Under the pieces are notes generated by a model that did no database searches, was not told where the DNA came from, and saw only the letters and a list, made by a program, of their open reading frames with translations. Positions 1 through 24,257 of a stretch of DNA of 25,191 nt are shown here, one piece after another. Within the stretch, counting starts at the first letter, position 1. Each line of letters opens with the position of its first letter. Source of the stretch: a virus (Duplodnaviria > Heunggongvirae > Uroviricota > Caudoviricetes); IMG/VR virus record IMGVR_UViG_2778261276_000008, positions 1-25,191 of that record; one strand, given 5' to 3'. The position numbers and the translations under genes were made by a program.

Positions 1-1053
1 TTACGGGGTAATGCCAACCGCTGCCGCCACTTTGTCGCCACTTGGCAGTGTTGCCAGAGGATTGAAACGGAGCGCCGTTTCCAGATGATCCGGTGCCAGA
101 TGTGCGTAACGCATAGTCATTTTTATATCGTGGTGTCCGAGAATTTTTTGTAAGGCCAGAATGTTTCCACCCGACATCATGAAGTGCGCCGCAAACGTAT
201 GGCGCAGAACGTGTGTGAGTTGACCGCGAGGGAGCACGATAGACGTTTTTTCCATCACGGATAAAAATTGAAAATAGCAGTCTGTGAAGAAATTGAACCC
301 ATCAAGCGCCATGATCTCTTCGTAAAGCTCTTTACTGATAGGGATGCTTCTGTTTTTCTTCCCCTTCGTTCTTACAAAGGTAATTCGGTATTTGGTCACC
401 TGTGAACGAGTAAGATTTACGGCTTCTCGCCAGCGTGCGCCTGTGCTTAAGCATATCTTAACTACCAGTGCCAGAATTGGGTCCTGACGTTTGCAATCAG
501 CCAGTAATTCAACAATCTGCTCATGGGTAAGCCATGCCATCTCTTTTTCTGCGATGGTGAATTTTCGCATGTTCTCCAGTGGGTTTGGATATGACCATTC
601 GCCCAGGCGGGATAGTTCGCTAAAAACACTACTTAGATAGCTTTGCTCTAGGTTAATGGTGACCGGGCTGGCTCCTTTCTTCCATTTCTCGCTGAAGTAG
701 ATCTCACCTGTCAGTCGTTTATCTCGATAATGGGCAAACATTTTAGATGTGAGATCGGTTGCAAGGGGATTGCCCAGAGCGTCAACCATCAGCAGCAATT
801 TGTCATAGACATGCTGCCCAGCAGTCAGAGATTTACCATGTAGTTTGAACCATAGCTCAACCACGTCTTTCAGGGTTCGACGATCTACTGATTCGCCCAG
901 CCAGGGCTTTGCTTCGGTTTCTTCCATCGTGTGACGCTCAAAAGCCAGTGCTTCGCCTTTGGTGGCGAATTGTTTACGCACACGACGCCCACTACGTCCG
1001 GCGGGGTAACATTCGCAAAGCCATTTTCCTGTGGTGAGTTTTCGTACTGCCAT
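1..1053 (-). CDS. int: Tyrosine integrase (P2/186 Int family), 350 aa
   Basis: Full ORF with the stop codon at 1..3 on the reverse strand. The C-terminal region has the tyrosine-recombinase pattern (R...HxxR...Y; LRHTFAAH, MRYAHL). Sits at the prophage end next to the att repeat. Confidence 0.9.
   Translation of the reverse strand: MAVRKLTTGKWLCECYPAGRSGRRVRKQFATKGEALAFERHTMEETEAKPWLGESVDRRTLKDVVELWFKLHGKSLTAGQHVYDKLLLMVDALGNPLATDLTSKMFAHYRDKRLTGEIYFSEKWKKGASPVTINLEQSYLSSVFSELSRLGEWSYPNPLENMRKFTIAEKEMAWLTHEQIVELLADCKRQDPILALVVKICLSTGARWREAVNLTRSQVTKYRITFVRTKGKKNRSIPISKELYEEIMALDGFNFFTDCYFQFLSVMEKTSIVLPRGQLTHVLRHTFAAHFMMSGGNILALQKILGHHDIKMTMRYAHLAPDHLETALRFNPLATLPSGDKVAAAVGITP
19..41. repeat. 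Candidate attL core (CGCTGCCGCCACTTTGTCGCCAC), inside the 3' end of int
   Basis: Seen in sequence: matches 22337..22359 at 21 of 23 positions (two C/T differences). Confidence 0.5.
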
Positions 1054-1134: not shown

Positions 1135-2109
1135 TCACTTTTTGGTAATGCTGTCATCATTTGCTGCTGATTTTTTATCTACAAGTGTACCTAGAATGTT
1201 AAATAAATTTGGAGGTGGCTGCATTTTATCTGCGAATGCAGAATTAGCAGACATGTTCCAATCTTTAAACACATCAATAGCATCTTGTTTTGTCGCAGTT
1301 GAACCATAAATTTGTAAGAAGACTTCACCAAACATTAGAGCATGTTGTCTGTCTTTTCTTATGATTGCTTCATGTGTGTATTTTTTTGAATTGTTTAAAC
1401 AAAAATAAGAAAGCCAAGAAAGTAATGCAACCCCAAGCAAGCCTCTAGTGAAATAATAAAAAAGTTCAATGGGGGTAGTATCTTTTATATCTATTTTATA
1501 AAAAAATGTTAAAAAGGCGGCACTTATAGATAATAATGAAAATAGTATTCCGGCTATCGCCCAATTGTAAGACATTGCAGTGAAATCTTTATCATCCTGC
1601 TGTAGTTTTTCTTTGACGCCCTGCACATATTTAGGAACTTTTTCGTCAATTTTATTTTGTTGGATTTTGCTTGAAAGTTCTTGGTTTTGAAGCTTTAGCT
1701 CATTGTTTTTGGCGTGTTGGAAATCTAGCTGTGATGCTAGTTTTTTTTTACTTTCCATTTCATTTAATAATTTTTCATTCAACTTTTCCATTTGCTCTGA
1801 ATGAGAGTTATGGATTTTTTGCAATTCACGCACTTTATGCTCTAATTTAGTGATTTTTGAAATGTAATCATCTATCTCACTATTTTTTAAGGATGTGCGT
1901 TCGGGGTTAATGTGCTCACAATTATATTTTTTAGAAAAATATTTACTGTAAACATCAAAAAGCACATCGAATTCATTAAACTTTAAAGAATTCAATAGTT
2001 TTTTCAAATCATTATAGACACTATCGGATAAATATGATTTTAATTCCTCTAGTTTAATGATTCTAGAGATATATTCTTCACTATTATCTTTCCAATTGGA
2101 ACCGGCCAT
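1135..2109 (-). CDS. Hypothetical protein, 324 aa: coiled-coil N-terminal region plus two predicted transmembrane helices (cargo gene)
   Basis: Long ORF, visibly AT-rich compared with flanks. SD-like GAGGA about 7 nt upstream of ATG. Lys/Glu/Leu-rich heptad-like region around aa 80-170. Hydrophobic helices at about aa 183-204 and 224-238. Lies 12 bp downstream of the cI-like gene on the same strand. Confidence 0.6.
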   Translation of the reverse strand: MAGSNWKDNSEEYISRIIKLEELKSYLSDSVYNDLKKLLNSLKFNEFDVLFDVYSKYFSKKYNCEHINPERTSLKNSEIDDYISKITKLEHKVRELQKIHNSHSEQMEKLNEKLLNEMESKKKLASQLDFQHAKNNELKLQNQELSSKIQQNKIDEKVPKYVQGVKEKLQQDDKDFTAMSYNWAIAGILFSLLSISAAFLTFFYKIDIKDTTPIELFYYFTRGLLGVALLSWLSYFCLNNSKKYTHEAIIRKDRQHALMFGEVFLQIYGSTATKQDAIDVFKDWNMSANSAFADKMQPPPNLFNILGTLVDKKSAANDDSITKK

Positions 2110-2121
2110 TCCAATATCCTC

Positions 2122-3066
2122 TTATAATTCTTCTATAAGCAAAAATTTGCATTTAGCAATAACATCAATGTCTGAAATATTACATTCAAACGATAAATAA
2201 TTGTCTGAGATTTTTAATCTTCCTACAGGTATCCTAGTTAGGGTTCGAATACTCACTTTTCCTTCTATTTCAACAATCCATTTACCATCTGTAATTTCAT
2301 CAAATGACTGATCACATAGGTATGTTTTTTTTGGGGTACTGACAATCAGTGGTAATTGGATTGAGTCTGGTATTAATGCTTTATCAAGCATATAGAAATC
2401 TGACTCAAATAGATTCCCATCAGTGATTTTTTTGCGTGTAATAGCAATTACATCATTTCTTGCATCGTCAAACTTTGGGCCTTTACCAGTAGTTAGCCAC
2501 GTTAGTGAAGTACCCGTTTCTAGAGCGCACTTAATTATCCAGTCTGAAGGAAAGACATCACGCATATATCTTGTGGCTAATGTGCTTTTTGAAATACCTA
2601 AGTGATCAGCTAAGGCTTGGCGCGTCTTATAACCGTAAGCCTTAACAATTCGTTCTATTGCTTCCTTGCCACCTCGAGAAAAATCAACGGAGTTTTCATT
2701 GTCGAACTTTTGTTGTTTATAGTGAACATCATGATAAGAACCATCTTCGGAGTGTGTTTCAACATGTTGTTCTGGTGAAGGGGATGGCATTTGCTCGTCA
2801 TCATCTGAACCAAATGCTAGCCATTTAATTGATGCTCCTGTTTCCATTGAGCAGATAACTACCCAATCTGCAGGAAATGTATCGCGGGCATATCTGTTAG
2901 CCATCGTGCTTTGGGAAATACCTAGATGGTTACAGAATGCCTGGCGTGACTTGAAGCCATAAGCCATGAGTATCCGCTCAATTACTTTCTGACCACCGCG
3001 ATTCTGTATGACAACGGCTTTCATATCGTCATTCATATGGCGAAATGTGAATTTTTGAGTTGACAT
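2122..3066 (-). CDS. cI: CI-like immunity repressor with tandemly duplicated 186-CI-type HTH domain, 314 aa
   Basis: Two internal repeats (about aa 14-86 and 117-195) share a GG..IERI..AYG(F/Y)K.RQA...HLGIS.ST.A.RY.RD.FP.DW...C..ETG.S..WL..G pattern, resembling the N-terminal DNA-binding domain of coliphage 186 CI as I recall it. Divergent from the apl-like gene, as in 186. Confidence 0.75.
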   Translation of the reverse strand: MSTQKFTFRHMNDDMKAVVIQNRGGQKVIERILMAYGFKSRQAFCNHLGISQSTMANRYARDTFPADWVVICSMETGASIKWLAFGSDDDEQMPSPSPEQHVETHSEDGSYHDVHYKQQKFDNENSVDFSRGGKEAIERIVKAYGYKTRQALADHLGISKSTLATRYMRDVFPSDWIIKCALETGTSLTWLTTGKGPKFDDARNDVIAITRKKITDGNLFESDFYMLDKALIPDSIQLPLIVSTPKKTYLCDQSFDEITDGKWIVEIEGKVSIRTLTRIPVGRLKISDNYLSFECNISDIDVIAKCKFLLIEEL

Positions 3067-3154
3067 GTTCTTTATGTGAACCTATTCTCCGTTTTGTGAT
3101 GTCTTTATCACGATTAAAACCAGCTCACCACAAGCTAAAAGGAGATGTTGCATC
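3067..3154. promoter_or_regulatory. Lysis/lysogeny switch region (divergent or face-to-face promoters, candidate operator)
   Basis: Intergenic region between divergent cI-like and apl-like genes. Contains the palindrome GTGAT-N6-ATCAC at 3096..3111 and an AAGGAG SD for the apl-like gene at 3139..3144. Confidence 0.45.
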
Positions 3155-3376
3155 ATGACCCCTAACATTTCAATAACTCTGAATACGCCACACGTCACAA
3201 TCGAGCGTTATAGCGAACTTACTGGCCTTTCAATCGACACAATCAACGATATGCTGGCTGATGGTCGCATCCCTCGGCATCGTCTTCGTAAAGACAAAAA
3301 AAGAGAAAAGGTAATGATCAACCTTGCTGCTCTTACCGTTGATGCACTTACTGATTTCAATATTGCATTCAATTAG
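3155..3376 (+). CDS. Apl/Cox-like small HTH protein (excisionase / early regulator), 73 aa
   Basis: First gene of the rightward early operon, with an AAGGAG SD. HTH-like segment [24 protein letters not shown]. Position is equivalent to 186 apl / P2 cox. Confidence 0.6.
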
Positions 3377-3408
3377 TTCCATTTTGGGATGTTTCAGGAG
3401 TGTCGACT

Positions 3409-3918
3409 ATGTTTGATTACCAAGTTTCCAAACATCCACATTTTGATGAAGCCTGTCGTGCTTTCGCACTGCGCCACAACCTGGTGCAACTGGCAGAACG
3501 TGCAGGCATGAATGTGCAGATTCTGCGGAACAAGCTGAACCCAGCTCAACCTCATTTATTAACCGCACCAGATATCTGGCTACTTACCGATCTGACTGAA
3601 GATTCAACGCTGGTAGATGGCTTTTTGGCTCAGATTAATTGTCTGCCATGTGTACCGATTAATGAGGTGGCAAAAGAGAAACTGCCGCATTACATCATGA
3701 GTGCAACAGCAGAGATCGGGCGTGTAGCTGCAGGTGCGGTTTCAGGCGATGTAAAAACCAGTGCAGGTCGTCGTGATGCGATCAGCAGCATTAACTCTGT
3801 AACACGACTGATGGCGTTGGCTGCTGTTTCATTGCAGGCCCGTTTACAGGCTAATCCTGCGATGGCGAGTGCAGTTGATACCGTGACTGGCCTCGGTGCT
3901 TCATTCGGTTTGCTATGA
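3409..3918 (+). CDS. cII: CII-like transcriptional activator (186 CII family)
   Basis: Protein beginning [24 protein letters not shown]... closely resembles 186 CII as I recall it. ATG at 3409 has a CAGGAG SD 8 nt upstream. The ORF track's GTG at 3400 is an alternative start. Confidence 0.75.
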
Positions 3919-3925
3919 GGTGCTT

Positions 3926-4126
3926 ATGCTTACGAAAGAACCATCATTTGCATCGCTGCTGGTAAAACAAAGTCCGGCAATGCACTACGGTCACGGCTGG
4001 ATAATGGGTAAGGATGGTAAACGCTGGCATCCGTGCCGTTCACAAGATGAATTGCTGGCAGAACTATCAACGAAAAAACGGGGGAACAAATGGCTATTGA
4101 AGGCGCTGCGGCGACTGTTCCATTAA
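3926..4126 (+). CDS. Small hypothetical early protein (positional analogue of 186 fil)
   Basis: ORF with a GAGGTG SD directly after the cII stop. Function not recognisable from sequence. Start is uncertain (ATG at 3896 is the alternative). Confidence 0.4.
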   Translation: MLTKEPSFASLLVKQSPAMHYGHGWIMGKDGKRWHPCRSQDELLAELSTKKRGNKWLLKALRRLFH

Positions 4127-8318: not shown

Positions 8319-8334
8319 CTGTAAATATAAACAG
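8319..8334. promoter_or_regulatory. LexA box (CTGTAAATATAAACAG) in the promoter of the tum-like operon
   Basis: Exact CTGT-N8-ACAG with an AT-rich spacer, 43 bp upstream of the ATG at 8377 and overlapping -10-like hexamers. Position is equivalent to the 186 SOS promoter p95. Confidence 0.6.
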
Positions 8335-8376: not shown

Positions 8377-8565
8377 ATGCAGGACTATTTTTTGGAGTCT
8401 TTGAAGCTCCAGCGCATTGATTTTTTTCTTAAGCTTGTAGCGGCTAGTGAGTGTAGTGATGAAGAGAAGGGGCTGGCTCTGCAGTGGGTTTCTGAATTGA
8501 CTGATGAACTCATGGCAAAAATCAGAAGCCACGAATACAACCGCTCAATGGATGTCATCAGCTGA
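8377..8565 (+). CDS. Small protein, 62 aa, first gene of the LexA-controlled operon
   Basis: AGGAGG SD 5 nt upstream. Immediately followed by the DinI-like gene. Confidence 0.5.
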   Translation: MQDYFLESLKLQRIDFFLKLVAASECSDEEKGLALQWVSELTDELMAKIRSHEYNRSMDVIS

Positions 8566-8575
8566 GGTGACTTTT

Positions 8576-8809
8576 ATGCGCATTGAAATAATGATCGATA
8601 AAGAGCAGAAGATTAGCCAGTCTACCCTGGACGCACTTGAATCCGAGCTTTACCGCAATCTGCGCCCCCTGTATCCCAAAACGGTAATTCGCATTCGCAA
8701 AGGTAGCTCTAACGGTGTGGAACTAACCGGACTGCAACTGGATGAAGAAAGAAAACAAGTGATGAAAATTATGCAGAAGGTGTGGGAGGACGACAGCTGG
8801 CTGCATTAA
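8576..8809 (+). CDS. DinI-family protein (186 Tum-like SOS antirepressor module), 77 aa
   Basis: Sequence MRIEIMIDKEQKISQ...LYRNL...IRIRKGSSNGVELTG...VMKIMQKVWEDDSWL resembles E. coli DinI (MRIEVTIAKT... ending in the W-rich acidic tail). GAGGTG SD 5 nt upstream of the ATG. Confidence 0.7.
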   Translation: MRIEIMIDKEQKISQSTLDALESELYRNLRPLYPKTVIRIRKGSSNGVELTGLQLDEERKQVMKIMQKVWEDDSWLH

Positions 8810-9811: not shown

Positions 9812-11551
9812 ATGGAATTGCACGCATATACTAGAACCATATCAGAATTACTTTCGGTTAATAGAAAATATGTTGTCCCAAGATTTCAGCGAGAATATTC
9901 TTGGGTAAAAGAACAAATTAATGAGCTTTGGTATGATGTAATATCTAATATCAAATTAGAGAATGATTTCACATATTCTAATAATGAGTATTTTATTGGT
10001 TCTTTAGTTTTAGTTGGAGATGAAACAGGAAGGGAAATGCAAATAGTTGATGGTCAGCAACGACTTACAACTCTTACGATTTTTCTTTCCGTTTTATGTG
10101 AGGCGTTCAAGCTAAACAATCAATCAGATTTAGCATCTGCTCTATTTGAAAATTATATTGAAGGTCGTGATGATGATGGTAAGAAATTTTTTAAGCTAAT
10201 AAATGAAACACCTAAGCCTTTTTTTCAGAAAAATATCCAACACCTTAATAAGGCAGATGACGCACCCCAGACACAAGAGGAGCGAAATCTCTTGTCTGCA
10301 TATAAGGAAATTACATCGTTAGCCTCAAAGGAAAAATTGGGAAAGTATTTTTCAGTCGAAATTAATACTGAAGATAATTATTCCAGTGTATTAAAAGCAA
10401 TTAGGGATCAGATTTTAAGATTTCTTAAGATAATTTTTATTACTGTTAATGAAGAGGACGAGGCGTATACAATATTTGAAACATTAAATGCGAGAGGGAT
10501 GAATTTAAGTTTTGTAGATCTAATTAAAAATAAATTATTTAAAGCGTTAAACAACCCTCATCCAAATGATGATGCAAAAGATAATTGGAAGGCTATACGT
10601 ACTACTTTAATGCAAAGAAATGGTGTAGGGACTTTTGAAAATTTCATGAGGCACTGGTGGGTGTCGAAGTATGCTTACGTAAGCAATGAAAATCTTTATA
10701 AGTCCTTTATTGGAAAATGGCGTAAGGGGGAAATTAATCCGGTAACCTTTATTGAAGAATTGAAACAGGATGCCGAATTGTATGTACGCTTGTCATCTCC
10801 TTTGGAGAGTGATTATCCACAAATGGAAGATAAACAGATATTCCATTCGTTGAATGCAATTAGGCTATTTGGTATAACGCAGTGTAGACCTTTTTTATTA
10901 GCTTTACTAAAGGCAAAACAGCAAAGGAGATTGCGTCAATGTGATCTTTTAAAAGCAGTTAAATATATTGAAAATTTTCATTTTGTATTTAATGCGATAT
11001 GTTCATTAAGGCCGTCAGGGATAGAAGGTGCATATTCTAAGGCCGCAAGAGCAATAAATTCACCAAATGCTACAAAAGTAACTAATGGTACAACAATTGA
11101 ACAGTTATGCTTGTTGTTGAGTAACCGCAAGCCAGAAATTTCTGTATTCACTGAAAATTTCAGAGATATATTATTTACTGATGACAACTCCAAGCAAAAA
11201 AGATTGGTCCAATATATTATAAATAAATTTGAAATGGCCCGTCATAATGGAGATGAGTATCGTCCTAATTCTATTTCTTTAGAGCATATAATGCCTCAAA
11301 GTGCTGGCAACGATAAGGAAATAGGAATGATTGGAAATATAATCCCTCTGTCAAAAGAACTTAATGAGCAAGCTGGTAATAAATCATTGGCACAAAAGCT
11401 CTCTATCTATTCACAATCGGAGTTTAGATTGACGGAAGAGTTTATTAGTGAACTTGAAACCATTTACCATAATGAATGGAATCTCCAGTCTATTATTCAG
11501 AAGACAGATAGAATGGCTGGTGAGGCTTATATGAATATTTGGAGTCATTAA
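9812..11551 (+). CDS. DUF262/DUF1524 (GmrSD-like) putative type IV restriction / anti-phage nuclease, 579 aa
   Basis: N-terminal DUF262 hallmarks (RFQREYSW at about aa 23-31, DGQQRLTTL at aa 80-88). C-terminal His-Me-finger-like SLEHIMPQS (His about 492) followed by Asn residues. AT-rich single gene. Confidence 0.75.
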   Translation: MELHAYTRTISELLSVNRKYVVPRFQREYSWVKEQINELWYDVISNIKLENDFTYSNNEYFIGSLVLVGDETGREMQIVDGQQRLTTLTIFLSVLCEAFKLNNQSDLASALFENYIEGRDDDGKKFFKLINETPKPFFQKNIQHLNKADDAPQTQEERNLLSAYKEITSLASKEKLGKYFSVEINTEDNYSSVLKAIRDQILRFLKIIFITVNEEDEAYTIFETLNARGMNLSFVDLIKNKLFKALNNPHPNDDAKDNWKAIRTTLMQRNGVGTFENFMRHWWVSKYAYVSNENLYKSFIGKWRKGEINPVTFIEELKQDAELYVRLSSPLESDYPQMEDKQIFHSLNAIRLFGITQCRPFLLALLKAKQQRRLRQCDLLKAVKYIENFHFVFNAICSLRPSGIEGAYSKAARAINSPNATKVTNGTTIEQLCLLLSNRKPEISVFTENFRDILFTDDNSKQKRLVQYIINKFEMARHNGDEYRPNSISLEHIMPQSAGNDKEIGMIGNIIPLSKELNEQAGNKSLAQKLSIYSQSEFRLTEEFISELETIYHNEWNLQSIIQKTDRMAGEAYMNIWSH

Positions 11552-22571: not shown

Positions 22572-24257
22572 TTATCCTAATCCTGGCCATACCATGACGA
22601 TGATTGTCCCTGCCAGCGTCAGCAGGACGTTGGCGATTGCATAGGTGCCCGCATAGCCCAGCGCCGGGATGTTACTGCGAGCTGTATCACTGATGATCTC
22701 CATTGCCGGCGCGCAGGTACGTGCGCCCATCATTGCGCCGAACAACAGCGCGCGGTTCATTCGCAATACATAAGCACCGAACAAGAAACAGATAACCACG
22801 GGCACCAGACTGACAATCAATCCGGCAATCAACATCTGACCGCCAATCGCGCCCAGGCCGTTATTAATACCGCTACCGGCGCTCAGACCAACGCCTGCCA
22901 TAAACACCATCAAGCCGAACTCTTTCACCATGCTTAATGCACCCTGCGGAATGTAACCGAAGGTCGGGTGGTTAGCACGCATAAAGCCCAGCATAATTCC
23001 GGCGAATAACAACCCGGCAGCGTTCCCCATGCCGAAACTGAATGTGCTGAACTGGAAGGTGATCATCCCGATCATCAGCCCAATAACAAAGAAGGCGCAG
23101 AATGCCAGCAGGTCAGTGACCTGGCTGTGAATCGAGATAAAGCCGATGCGATCGGCGATGGTTTTTACGCGGCGGGCATCGCCGCTGACTTGTAAAACGT
23201 CACCTTTGTTAAGCACGACGTTGTCATCTATCGGCATCTCAATCTGGCTACGAATGACGCGGTTAAGGAAGCAACCGTGATCGGTCAACTTCAGTTGTGC
23301 GAGACGTTTACCTACAGCGTTATGGTTTTTAACGACCACTTCTTCAGTGACGATACGCATGTCGAGAAGGTCACGATCGAAAACTTCTTTACCGTTACGG
23401 AAGCTGGGATCGAGTCGGGCATGGGCGTCGGGATAGCCTACCAACGCTATTTCATCGCCCATTTGTAGCACGGCATCACCGTCTGGATTTGCCAGAATCC
23501 CGTTACGTCGAATACGTTCAATGTAGCAGCCGGTTTGTCGATAAATACCCAGTTCACGCAGATTTTTGCCGTCGGTCCAGGCCACCAGTTCCGGGCCGAC
23601 GCGATAGGCGCGGATCACCGGTAAATAAACCTTACGGTTGGCATCAGTGTCCAGGCCACGTTCGCGGGCGATTTGCTGGGCGCTGGTCTGTAAGTCCTGA
23701 TGCTGCAATTTCGGCAAGTAACGCGCACCAACAATCAAACTCACCAGACCGATTAAATAGGTTAAGGCATACCCGAGGCTCAGATTATCCAGTGCCAGTG
23801 AGAGCTGCCTGCTTTCCATGCCGGAATGACGCAGTGTATCGCCAGCACCGACCAGAACCGGTGTCGACGTCATAGAGCCTGCTAACATACCGGCCGTCAG
23901 GCCAATATCCCAGCCAAACAGCTTACCTAACCCTAAGGCGATCACCAGCGCACTGCCAACCATCACCAGTGCTAACATTAGGTAATTTTTCCCATCGCGA
24001 AAAAAAATGGAAAAAAAGTTCGGTCCGGCTTCGACCCCGACGCAGAAAATAAACAGCATAAAGCCAAGATTAAGCGCATCGGTGTTAATGCTGAAATGTT
24101 GTTGGCCTAATAACAGCGATACGACTAAAACGCCAATGGAATTACCCAGTTGGATCGAACCAAGTCGTAACTTTCCGAGACATAGCCCAAGCGCGAGGAC
24201 CACAAATAATAACAGAATGTAATTCCCATTTAACAATTCGGCGACGTTTATATTCAC
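22572..24257 (-). CDS. ybjL: Putative transport protein YbjL (AAE-type transporter with central RCK_C/TrkA-C domains), 561 aa
   Basis: Multi-TM N- and C-terminal halves with soluble central domains. Sequence and length match E. coli YbjL as I recall it. Neighbours ybjM and grxA as in E. coli. Confidence 0.85.

Follow-up and report, generated by a model that had tools for sequence, protein, structure and literature searches.

We analysed a 25,191-nucleotide (nt) stretch of DNA (IMG/VR record IMGVR_UViG_2778261276_000008, positions 1 to 25,191; hereafter the window), which is a 186/PSP3-like P2-type (Peduoviridae) prophage of Escherichia coli, and in it the cI gene, which encodes an immunity repressor of 314 amino acids (aa) of the 186 family (Table 1). 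The repressor has two helix-turn-helix (HTH) domains, or heads, here called D1 and D2, ahead of one C-terminal domain (CTD). Two-headed CIs of this kind are built modularly from heads of different lineages, and the operators at the lytic promoter pR match the N-terminal head. The interpretation that we favour, with a probability of about 60%, is that the protein is a working immunity repressor in which D1 acts on pR, D2 acts on a distal site within the gene or on the operators of foreign phages, and the CTD forms a wheel. The two-headed 186-type CI is a common and old form, apparently uncharacterised, of which the protein in the window is an ordinary member.

Domain anatomy of the repressor

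When residues 1-100 were compared with the rest of the protein by BLASTP, aa 22-86 paired with aa 130-194 without gaps (38/65 identical, 58%; 82% positives; E = 1e-31). Pfam assigned PF07022 (Phage_CI_repr) to two stretches (E 3e-58) and PF16452 (Phage_CI_C) to aa 209-307 (E 2.7e-31), and the best description in PHROGs was phrog_4, transcriptional repressor (E 1e-72). The paralogous 186-CI-type HTH repeats that a sequence-only reading of this DNA had proposed are thus confirmed by the self-comparison and by the double PF07022 match. Their limits, given as residues 14-86 and 117-195, were roughly right, except that 14-21 and 117-129 are leader sequence outside the significant alignment. The DNA copies, 2809-3003 and 2485-2679, are offset by 324 nt and are 66% identical over 195 nt (random windows, 25 ± 3%), with identities of 0.68, 0.83 and 0.48 at the three codon positions. 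The similarity that had been noticed between the DNA copies is therefore real, but the spans named for it, 2860..3030 and 2560..2730, stand 300 nt apart and thus miss the correct register by 24 nt; compared ungapped as written, they are 24% identical.

An AlphaFold2 model built on 44 two-headed homologues has five or six helices in each HTH copy, with predicted local distance difference test scores (pLDDT) of ~80 for the D1 helices (residues 13-85) and 79-86 for the D2 helices (133-193). Residues 89-128 are disordered (pLDDT 29-43) and leave a tether of ~40 residues between the heads, and the CTD, joined to D2 by a hinge, is beta-rich with pLDDT >90. The predicted TM score of 0.38 indicates that the domains are not packed on each other. 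The model matched the 186 CI structure 2fjr in Foldseek (E 1.4e-17), and the CTD matched 2fkd_A, the 14-mer-forming CTD of 186 CI, with a TM score of 0.90 and a root-mean-square deviation of 1.9 Å over 110 columns. In a phmmer comparison with 2fjr (E 2.6e-26) the aligned region was only aa 135-305, so the material that is extra relative to 186 CI is aa 1 to ~130. The 186 protein had been described as a repressor of about 190 residues with a single HTH domain, and its record indeed gives 192 aa and one such domain. The recognition helices read SQSTMANRY in D1, SKSTLATRY in D2 and ASSSLSNRY in 186 CI.

Origin of the two heads

Residues 1-86 are 78% identical to aa 1-86 of P0087, a single-headed S22-type CI of 208 aa, while residues 119-314 are 81% identical to aa 4-199 of P0027, a single-headed S15-type CI of 199 aa. 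Over the heads only, the identities are 0.84 for D1 with P0087, 0.82 for D2 with P0031, and 0.57 for D1 with D2. Clustering of the domains gave the same division: 36 D1 copies grouped with 8 single-headed S22/S24 heads, and 44 of the 45 D2 copies with single-headed S15/S4 heads. Since each head is closer to a different single-headed lineage than to the other head, a recent local duplication, which the description of the gene as tandemly duplicated had implied, is not supported here. The D1 leader is common to S22-type single-headed CIs, and the last ~13 residues of the linker are a remnant of the N-terminal leader of an S15-type CI; the ~30 linker residues before them were unassignable. From these alignments, the gene reads as the head and leader of an S22 lineage (SQSTMANRY) set before a complete S15-lineage CI (SKSTLA[T/N]RY), that is, as a head-plus-operator module placed in frame ahead of an entire cI gene. 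We also considered a one-headed isoform made from an internal translation start and rejected it, as the linker has no conserved Met or start codon where the S15 protein would once have begun.

The two-headed classes have drawn their N-terminal heads from at least four lineages. The other origins of D1 include STSTMSTRW-type heads in an E. coli class of 293 aa (0.79) and S4-LATRY heads in P0049, P0051 and L118 (0.82-0.84), and the D1 of the PSP3 class is an orphan with no close single-headed relative. Either independent fusions or an exchange of the D1-pR module after one fusion could have given rise to them. In Shewanella P0220 and P0260 (315-334 aa), D1 and D2 are 0.70 and 0.52 identical to each other and at most 0.51 and 0.46 identical to single heads, respectively; by this measure the two proteins look like genuine in-place duplications, unlike the enterobacterial chimeras.

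Operators at pR

The gene had been taken for the immunity repressor of a 186-like switch, and the layout of the region agrees: int and cI run leftward and close together, apl and cII diverge from cI rightward, and pR lies at the cI start, as in 186. The position and hexamers of pR are conserved in all related loci and are analogous to the annotated 186 pR. We aligned 160 related loci on the -35 hexamer, and from these same pR sequences derived the motif sCG-WWW-TGyGA. Direct repeats of approximately this form are present in all main-class two-headed phages except L096, L097 and L116, and with the same three exceptions the leader codons holding the left repeat, GGCGAAATGTG, are invariant in all main-class loci. 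On these three IMG/VR contigs cI is two-headed (307 aa), the sequence rightward of the pR -35 shows no relation to the normal apl region, and the contigs may be rearranged or defective elements. In the window, the three pR sites are spaced 29 and 20 nt apart from start to start, with 49 nt from left to right, and the only two exact matches to the motif in the 25 kb are both at pR.

The single-headed relatives of the two heads differ in what they carry at pR. The single-headed SQ phages L054 and L075, which are closest to D1, match the two-headed loci in where the left and right repeats lie. In the S15 single-headed phages, which are closest to D2, these two positions are taken by GATCTCAYTTGGGTAC (left) and GTTCCCATTTGGGGAC (right). 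S15-type palindromes (GTWCCCANNTGGGWAC) gave 2 matches in the window with 2.3 expected, neither of them meaningful. By inspection, pR resembles that of the D1-type singles in the SASTMGTRW class and in L118 too. These comparisons predict that D1 reads pR. What is more, because single-headed SQ phages have the same flanking-repeat layout, the layout needs no second head, and the arrangement of operators at pR appears not to have been altered by it. A change of operator geometry, which the sequence-only reading had expected of a two-headed repressor, is thus not seen at pR, where the flanking repeats are laid out as in the single-headed D1 relatives.

The middle repeat fits the motif in the subclass whose D2 helix ends in ...ANRY, while the subclass of the window (...ATRY) has a weaker, S15-like site. 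The site reads mCCGwwwTGnGATCC with the former and TTCTTTATGyGAACC with the latter, and D1 is ~90% identical in both; the difference could be covariation with D2 or simple linkage. Two further schemes found no general support. In a "hybrid pR" each head type would have an operator of its own, but in the ...ANRY subclass all three sites fit the same repeat and only the subclass of the window deviates. Nor is the recognition helix the sole predictor of operator type, as L015 and L124 both have SKSTLANRY and their operators differ.

Conservation of the second head and a candidate site in the linker

Mean identity of the repressor to the 32 other main-class proteins is 86% in D1, 76% in D2, 21% in the linker and 38% in the CTD, which makes D1 the best-conserved segment of the protein and the CTD its least conserved folded part. 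The nucleotide identity of D2 is 0.80 in the correct register, and identity at third codon positions inside the heads is 0.64-0.65 (0.64 in D2). Since these positions have diverged within the heads, the conservation at the protein level reflects selection. Both recognition helices conform to the 186 pattern, S-x-S-[ST]-[LM]-[AS]-x-R-Y, the D2 helix being essentially invariant, and the internal SK-type head is kept in several two-headed classes. The case in which one of the repeats has lost all its DNA-contacting residues, which had been envisaged earlier, does not apply, since both recognition helices are intact. The pattern of substitutions suggests that both heads are under purifying selection and predicts a DNA-reading role for D2.

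A conserved island in the linker codons is a candidate for the DNA that D2 reads. In the window the island is GTTCGACAATGAAAAC, which is unique there, and among four lineages of the ...ATRY subclass its nucleotide identity is 0.91, compared with 0.67-0.71 in the flanks; GTTCAC (2717-2722 in the window) occurs 21 nt upstream of it in three of the four. The linker of the ...ANRY-subclass CIs contains CCCAAWTGAGA, which lies 25 nt before D2 (25-28 nt with the other classes) and ~350 nt into cI and is the reverse complement of TCTCAATTGGG, the core of the 186 pR operator. The island reads GTTCCCAATTGAGAC in L003, L105 and L115 and CCCAATTGAGA in a sister phage, and the SASTMGTRW class has a near-palindrome 28 nt before D2 (GTCCCCAATTGGGAAC in L119). 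The S15 single-headed phages have their leftmost operator within the leader codons (AAG TAC CCA AGT GAG ATC, K-Y-P-S-E-I), and it is at this place that the linker island of the two-headed CI sits. FL of 186, ~270-285 nt into cI, is at a comparable position.

In the sister subclass, the 11 distinct sequences of the island have a pairwise identity of 0.94, compared with 0.77 in D2 and 0.45 in the adjacent linker. The Pro (CCA) and Glu (GAG) codons of the island are invariant, a single codon being used in only 2% of the D1/D2 columns with an invariant residue, and the other residues that it encodes vary non-conservatively (F/S/N, I/N, T/I/N). Invariant codons together with non-conservative residue changes argue for a constraint on the DNA rather than on the peptide. 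For the window, these patterns hint at the linker island as the target of D2.

A further candidate for D2, GTTCCATTTTGGGAT at 3376-3390, lies in the apl-cII gap at the position of 186 FR, is S15-type-like and is found in all two-headed loci. It was rejected as an "FR-like" head-2 site, being present in every CI class including the S15 and SQ-only phages. The slightly longer TAGTTCCATTTTGGGAT (3374-3390), at the apl stop and cII start, is kept across all the CI classes examined, irrespective of head type, and is probably part of the CII-dependent promoter pE, not a CI operator.

A model for the two-headed repressor and its alternatives

In the model that we favour, the CTD would dimerise and assemble a wheel of the 186 type. 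D1 would bind the sCG-WWW-TGyGA direct repeats that flank the -35 and -10 hexamers of pR, so that the lytic operon is repressed. D2, under purifying selection, would bind a separate target, for which the best candidate is the island in the linker codons, ~360 bp left of pR. The island would then serve as a distal operator like FL of 186, looping to the wheel bound at pR, and D2 may perhaps also bind the operators of incoming S15-type phages.

Several points weigh against this model. Wheel formation is assumed from the similarity of the CTD fold only, in a domain whose sequence is poorly conserved (38%), and the assignments of heads to operators are predictions from sequence comparison. The middle pR site of the window fits the motif poorly and is closer to the S15 middle site. 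With one mismatch allowed, the motif occurs in the window less often than chance predicts (9 matches against 12.9), so we make no genome-wide claim for it. D1 and pR are adjacent and their co-inheritance is expected anyway, so that the argument depends on the single-headed relatives having the same operators. As for the island, the version in the subclass of the window is without the canonical core, with 4-5 mismatches, is supported by no more than four lineages and is single-copy in the window, and its conservation could reflect a function of the linker peptide. The element at 3376-3390, tempting as an FR-like partner site, occurs in all CI classes and so gives no support.

It seems unlikely to us that D2 is a functionless passenger of the fusion, in a protein that works as a D1-headed repressor with a long spacer. 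Such a passenger would fit with the presence of only D1-type operators at pR, with the lack of a meaningful S15-type palindrome in the window and with the divergence of the ancestral operator island in the window's subclass. However, the 76% conservation of D2 exceeds that of the linker (21%) and of the CTD (38%), and the recognition helix of D2 is essentially invariant; its synonymous sites have diverged (third position 0.64), so the conservation of the protein is due to selection; and the internal SK-type head has been retained in several two-headed classes.

Less probable still is a local tandem duplication of the HTH domain that produced a single-chain pseudo-dimer, with equivalent heads on adjacent half-sites and a changed geometry at pR. 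D1 and D2 are clear paralogues, a flexible tether of 40 residues would let both reach neighbouring sites, the pR sites are direct repeats and not palindromes, and Shewanella P0220 looks truly duplicated in place (D1-D2 identity of 0.70, above that to any single head). On the other hand, D1 and D2 of the window have their much closer relatives in different single-headed lineages, the two recognition helices are not alike (Q/K, M/L, N/T), and single-headed SQ phages have the same flanking repeats at pR.

We are similarly sceptical that D2 and the CTD form the actual repressor and that D1 is a regulatory appendage, such as an autoinhibitory domain, or one that senses the SOS antirepressor or serves as its decoy. 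This idea draws on the alignment of 186 CI with D2 and the CTD only, and on the LexA-controlled Tum/DinI-like module of the phage, Tum being annotated in the 186 record as inhibiting DNA binding by CI. However, the pR operators match those of phages whose sole head is D1-like, not those of D2-like phages, and D1 is the most conserved segment and keeps a full recognition helix. Finally, an artefact in which two neighbouring genes or a pseudogene were joined by an assembly or frameshift error was ruled out by the recurrence of the intact open reading frame (ORF), which 5 complete E. coli genomes and IMG/VR contigs carry at 99.9-100% identity, and by intact two-headed homologues of 285-330 aa in ~140 proteins of many genera, and nothing was found in its favour.

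If both heads are active, one repressor would have two DNA specificities. This would bear on the evolution of immunity groups, on the prediction of superinfection immunity from sequence, and on synthetic circuits built with parts of 186 CI. Among the alternatives to the lambda switch, the 186 CI wheel is one of the best studied, and to our knowledge all mechanistic work on it has used a one-headed protein. A broader proposal, possible but doubtful, is that 186-like phages use two-headed CIs to alter or broaden their immunity in a modular way. Together with its own pR operators, a new head would be grafted ahead of a complete repressor, and the old head would be reused on the buried linker operator (looping an FL-like site), against incoming phages of the old immunity, or both, giving two specificities and a wheel with 28 heads of two kinds.

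Distribution of two-headed CI proteins

The sequence-only reading had regarded the architecture as unusual, a view that the counts largely contradict. In a sample of close relatives (the 120 best 90%-identity clusters and the query), 46 of the 121 carry two HTH domains. The source genera of these are Escherichia, Salmonella, Klebsiella, Enterobacter, Citrobacter, Kosakonia and Edwardsiella; identity to the query is only 43-62% for most of them and 94% for one cluster, P0001. An exhaustive HMMER search over 1.84 billion 50%-identity representatives, with matches of at least 170 aa kept (n=82), gave 20 two-headed representatives, about a quarter of the clusters, some at 29-40% identity; named two-headed members came from Pantoea, Hafnia, Citrobacter, Edwardsiella and Shewanella. 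Among the sequences fetched there are 140 full-length two-domain CI proteins, and over 1000 contigs from E. coli and further Enterobacteriaceae carry one class of 293 aa. By megablast, the head module of the window is present in 34 of 5426 complete E. coli genomes, including that of enteropathogenic E. coli (EPEC) E2348/69.

Deposited phages with a two-headed CI include 4LV2017 with ~20 Klebsiella prophage records, PSP3, SEN1, Midge, SW9, SI22 and vB_EcoM-613R3. The CI of PSP3 (L163, NC_005340; 1501-2361, 286 aa) has two PF07022 matches followed by PF16452, with D1 and D2 45% identical and a linker of ~24 aa. In a comparative paper of 2011, the size of the CI proteins of PsP3 and prophage PhiECO3 was put down to "a longer C-terminal domain" (PMC3448106). 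We found no description in the literature of a 186-type CI architecture with two HTH domains.

Exchange of the C-terminal domain

In the comparison with 4LV2017 (L002, KY271398), positions 2480-4092, which hold both heads, the linker, the operators, apl and cII, are common at 88% nucleotide identity. The adjoining 1112-2480, with the CTD and the 324-aa ORF, has been replaced as a unit, the identity being 32-58% over 2122-2480, and the replaced block is AT-rich (28-33% GC). As judged from this alignment, the heads move as one with the operators, and exchange of the oligomerisation domain is independent of them. The avoidance of mixed oligomers, or of antirepressors, is a possible reason for swapping the CTD.

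Comparison with known repressors

The repressor resembles 186 CI (2FJR, 2FKD) in its PF07022 HTH and PF16452 CTD, in the position of its gene by int and divergent from apl-cII, in the overlap of pR with the cI start and, if the candidate linker island is an operator, in having operators inside the cI coding sequence (FL in 186, the island here). The 186 protein has one head in 192 aa, whereas here two heads of different lineages are joined by a 40-residue tether. The distal operators of 186, FL and FR, lie ~300 bp either side of pR. The 186 record gives three CI sites at pR, 23011-23067, which contain TCTCAATTGGGAGA, and A-type sites, ATTCAC-N5-GTGAAT, at FL, FR and pB. The pR operators of 186 are thus TCTCAATTGGGAGA-type palindromes, whereas those of the window are sCG-WWW-TGyGA direct repeats, and a 186-like operator core survives only in linker codons, in sister phages of the window. 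In the literature, two turns separate the pR sites of 186, which sit on a seven-dimer wheel (PMC3675496).

The CI proteins of PSP3, 4LV2017, SEN1, Midge and SW9 share the two-headed architecture, PF07022 twice with PF16452. 4LV2017 has both heads, the operators, apl and cII in common with the window (88%, as above) but an unrelated-looking CTD allele, while the CI of PSP3 belongs to a separate sequence class, with its lower D1-D2 identity (45%) and shorter linker (~24 aa). The S22-type P0087 (208 aa) and the S15-type P0027 (199 aa) have one head each, and the CI of the window combines both. With its functional analogue lambda CI the repressor shares an N-terminal HTH domain, a C-terminal domain for oligomerisation (predicted in the window) and, if the proposal for the island is right, long-range looping between operators. 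Lambda CI differs in its unrelated HTH subfamily, in having one head per chain, in forming an octamer through OL-OR looping in place of the 186 wheel, and in being inactivated by RecA-mediated self-cleavage, not by a Tum-type antirepressor.

Features of the window and neighbouring genes

Table 1. Features of the cI region and adjoining genes in the window
Feature	Position	Strand	Basis or remark
int	1..1053	-	ORF list; leftward next to the cI region
324-aa ORF, phrog_2628 (function unknown)	1135..2109	-	between int and cI
cI, two-headed 186-family immunity repressor, 314 aa	2122..3066	-	ORF, Pfam, PHROGs
C-terminal domain, aa 209-307, 186-CI-type beta domain	2146..2442	-	PF16452, Foldseek; predicted oligomerisation domain
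HTH domain D2, aa 130-194, recognition helix SKSTLATRY	2485..2679	-	BLASTP, Pfam, AlphaFold2 helices
Inter-domain linker, aa 87-129, predicted disordered, acidic, Pro/Ser-rich	2680..2808	-	pLDDT, low identity
Conserved island GTTCGACAATGAAAAC in linker codons, candidate distal (FL-like) head-2 operator, 359 nt into cI	2692..2707	-	conservation; putative function
HTH domain D1, aa 22-86, recognition helix SQSTMANRY	2809..3003	-	BLASTP, Pfam, AlphaFold2 helices
21-aa N-terminal leader of head 1 (MSTQKFTFRH...)	3004..3066	-	coding DNA includes the left repeat of pR
pR operator repeat, left (GCGAAATGTGA)	3040..3050	+	exact sCG-WWW-TGyGA; in D1 leader codons 'TFRH'
Predicted lytic promoter pR, TTGACA-17-TATTCT	3060..3088	+	10/12 consensus; -35 hexamer and cI start codon overlap
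pR middle site in the promoter spacer (GTTCTTTATGTGAAC)	3067..3081	+	weaker match (2 mismatches)
pR operator repeat, right (CCGTTTTGTGA)	3089..3099	+	exact motif, just past the -10; inverted TCACG at 3108-3112
apl, Cox-like excisionase/repressor, first gene of the lytic operon	3155..3376	+	phrog_575, E 4e-30; divergent from cI
cII-type activator of lysogeny establishment	3400..3918	+	PF06892, E 3e-41

The cI-apl region is 99.9% identical in the 5 complete E. coli genomes, where the cI gene (99.9-100% identical) is annotated "phage repressor protein CI", and the flanks of the window are 94-95% identical to Klebsiella phage 4LV2017, KP12 and vB_EcoM-813R9. The 324-aa ORF at 1135..2109 had no match in Pfam or PADLOC. 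Downstream of cII are a methylase, replication gene A and the SOS module.

In the SOS module, a perfect LexA box (CTGTAAATATAAACAG, 8319-8334) stands ahead of an ORF of 62 aa (8377..8565; phrog_698, unknown function), which is followed by a DinI ORF (8576..8809) that is 41% identical to the C-terminal half of 186 Tum. BLASTP gave no match between the 62-aa ORF and the N-terminal half of Tum, and the resemblance is by eye only. Tum is one protein of 146 aa in 186, and in the window it appears to be split over two genes. Between the SOS module and the packaging genes, positions 9812..11551 (+) encode a protein of 579 aa with GmrSD_N and GmrSD_C domains (PADLOC HEC-06, E 1e-92) in DNA of 32-37% GC, a defence-type moron.

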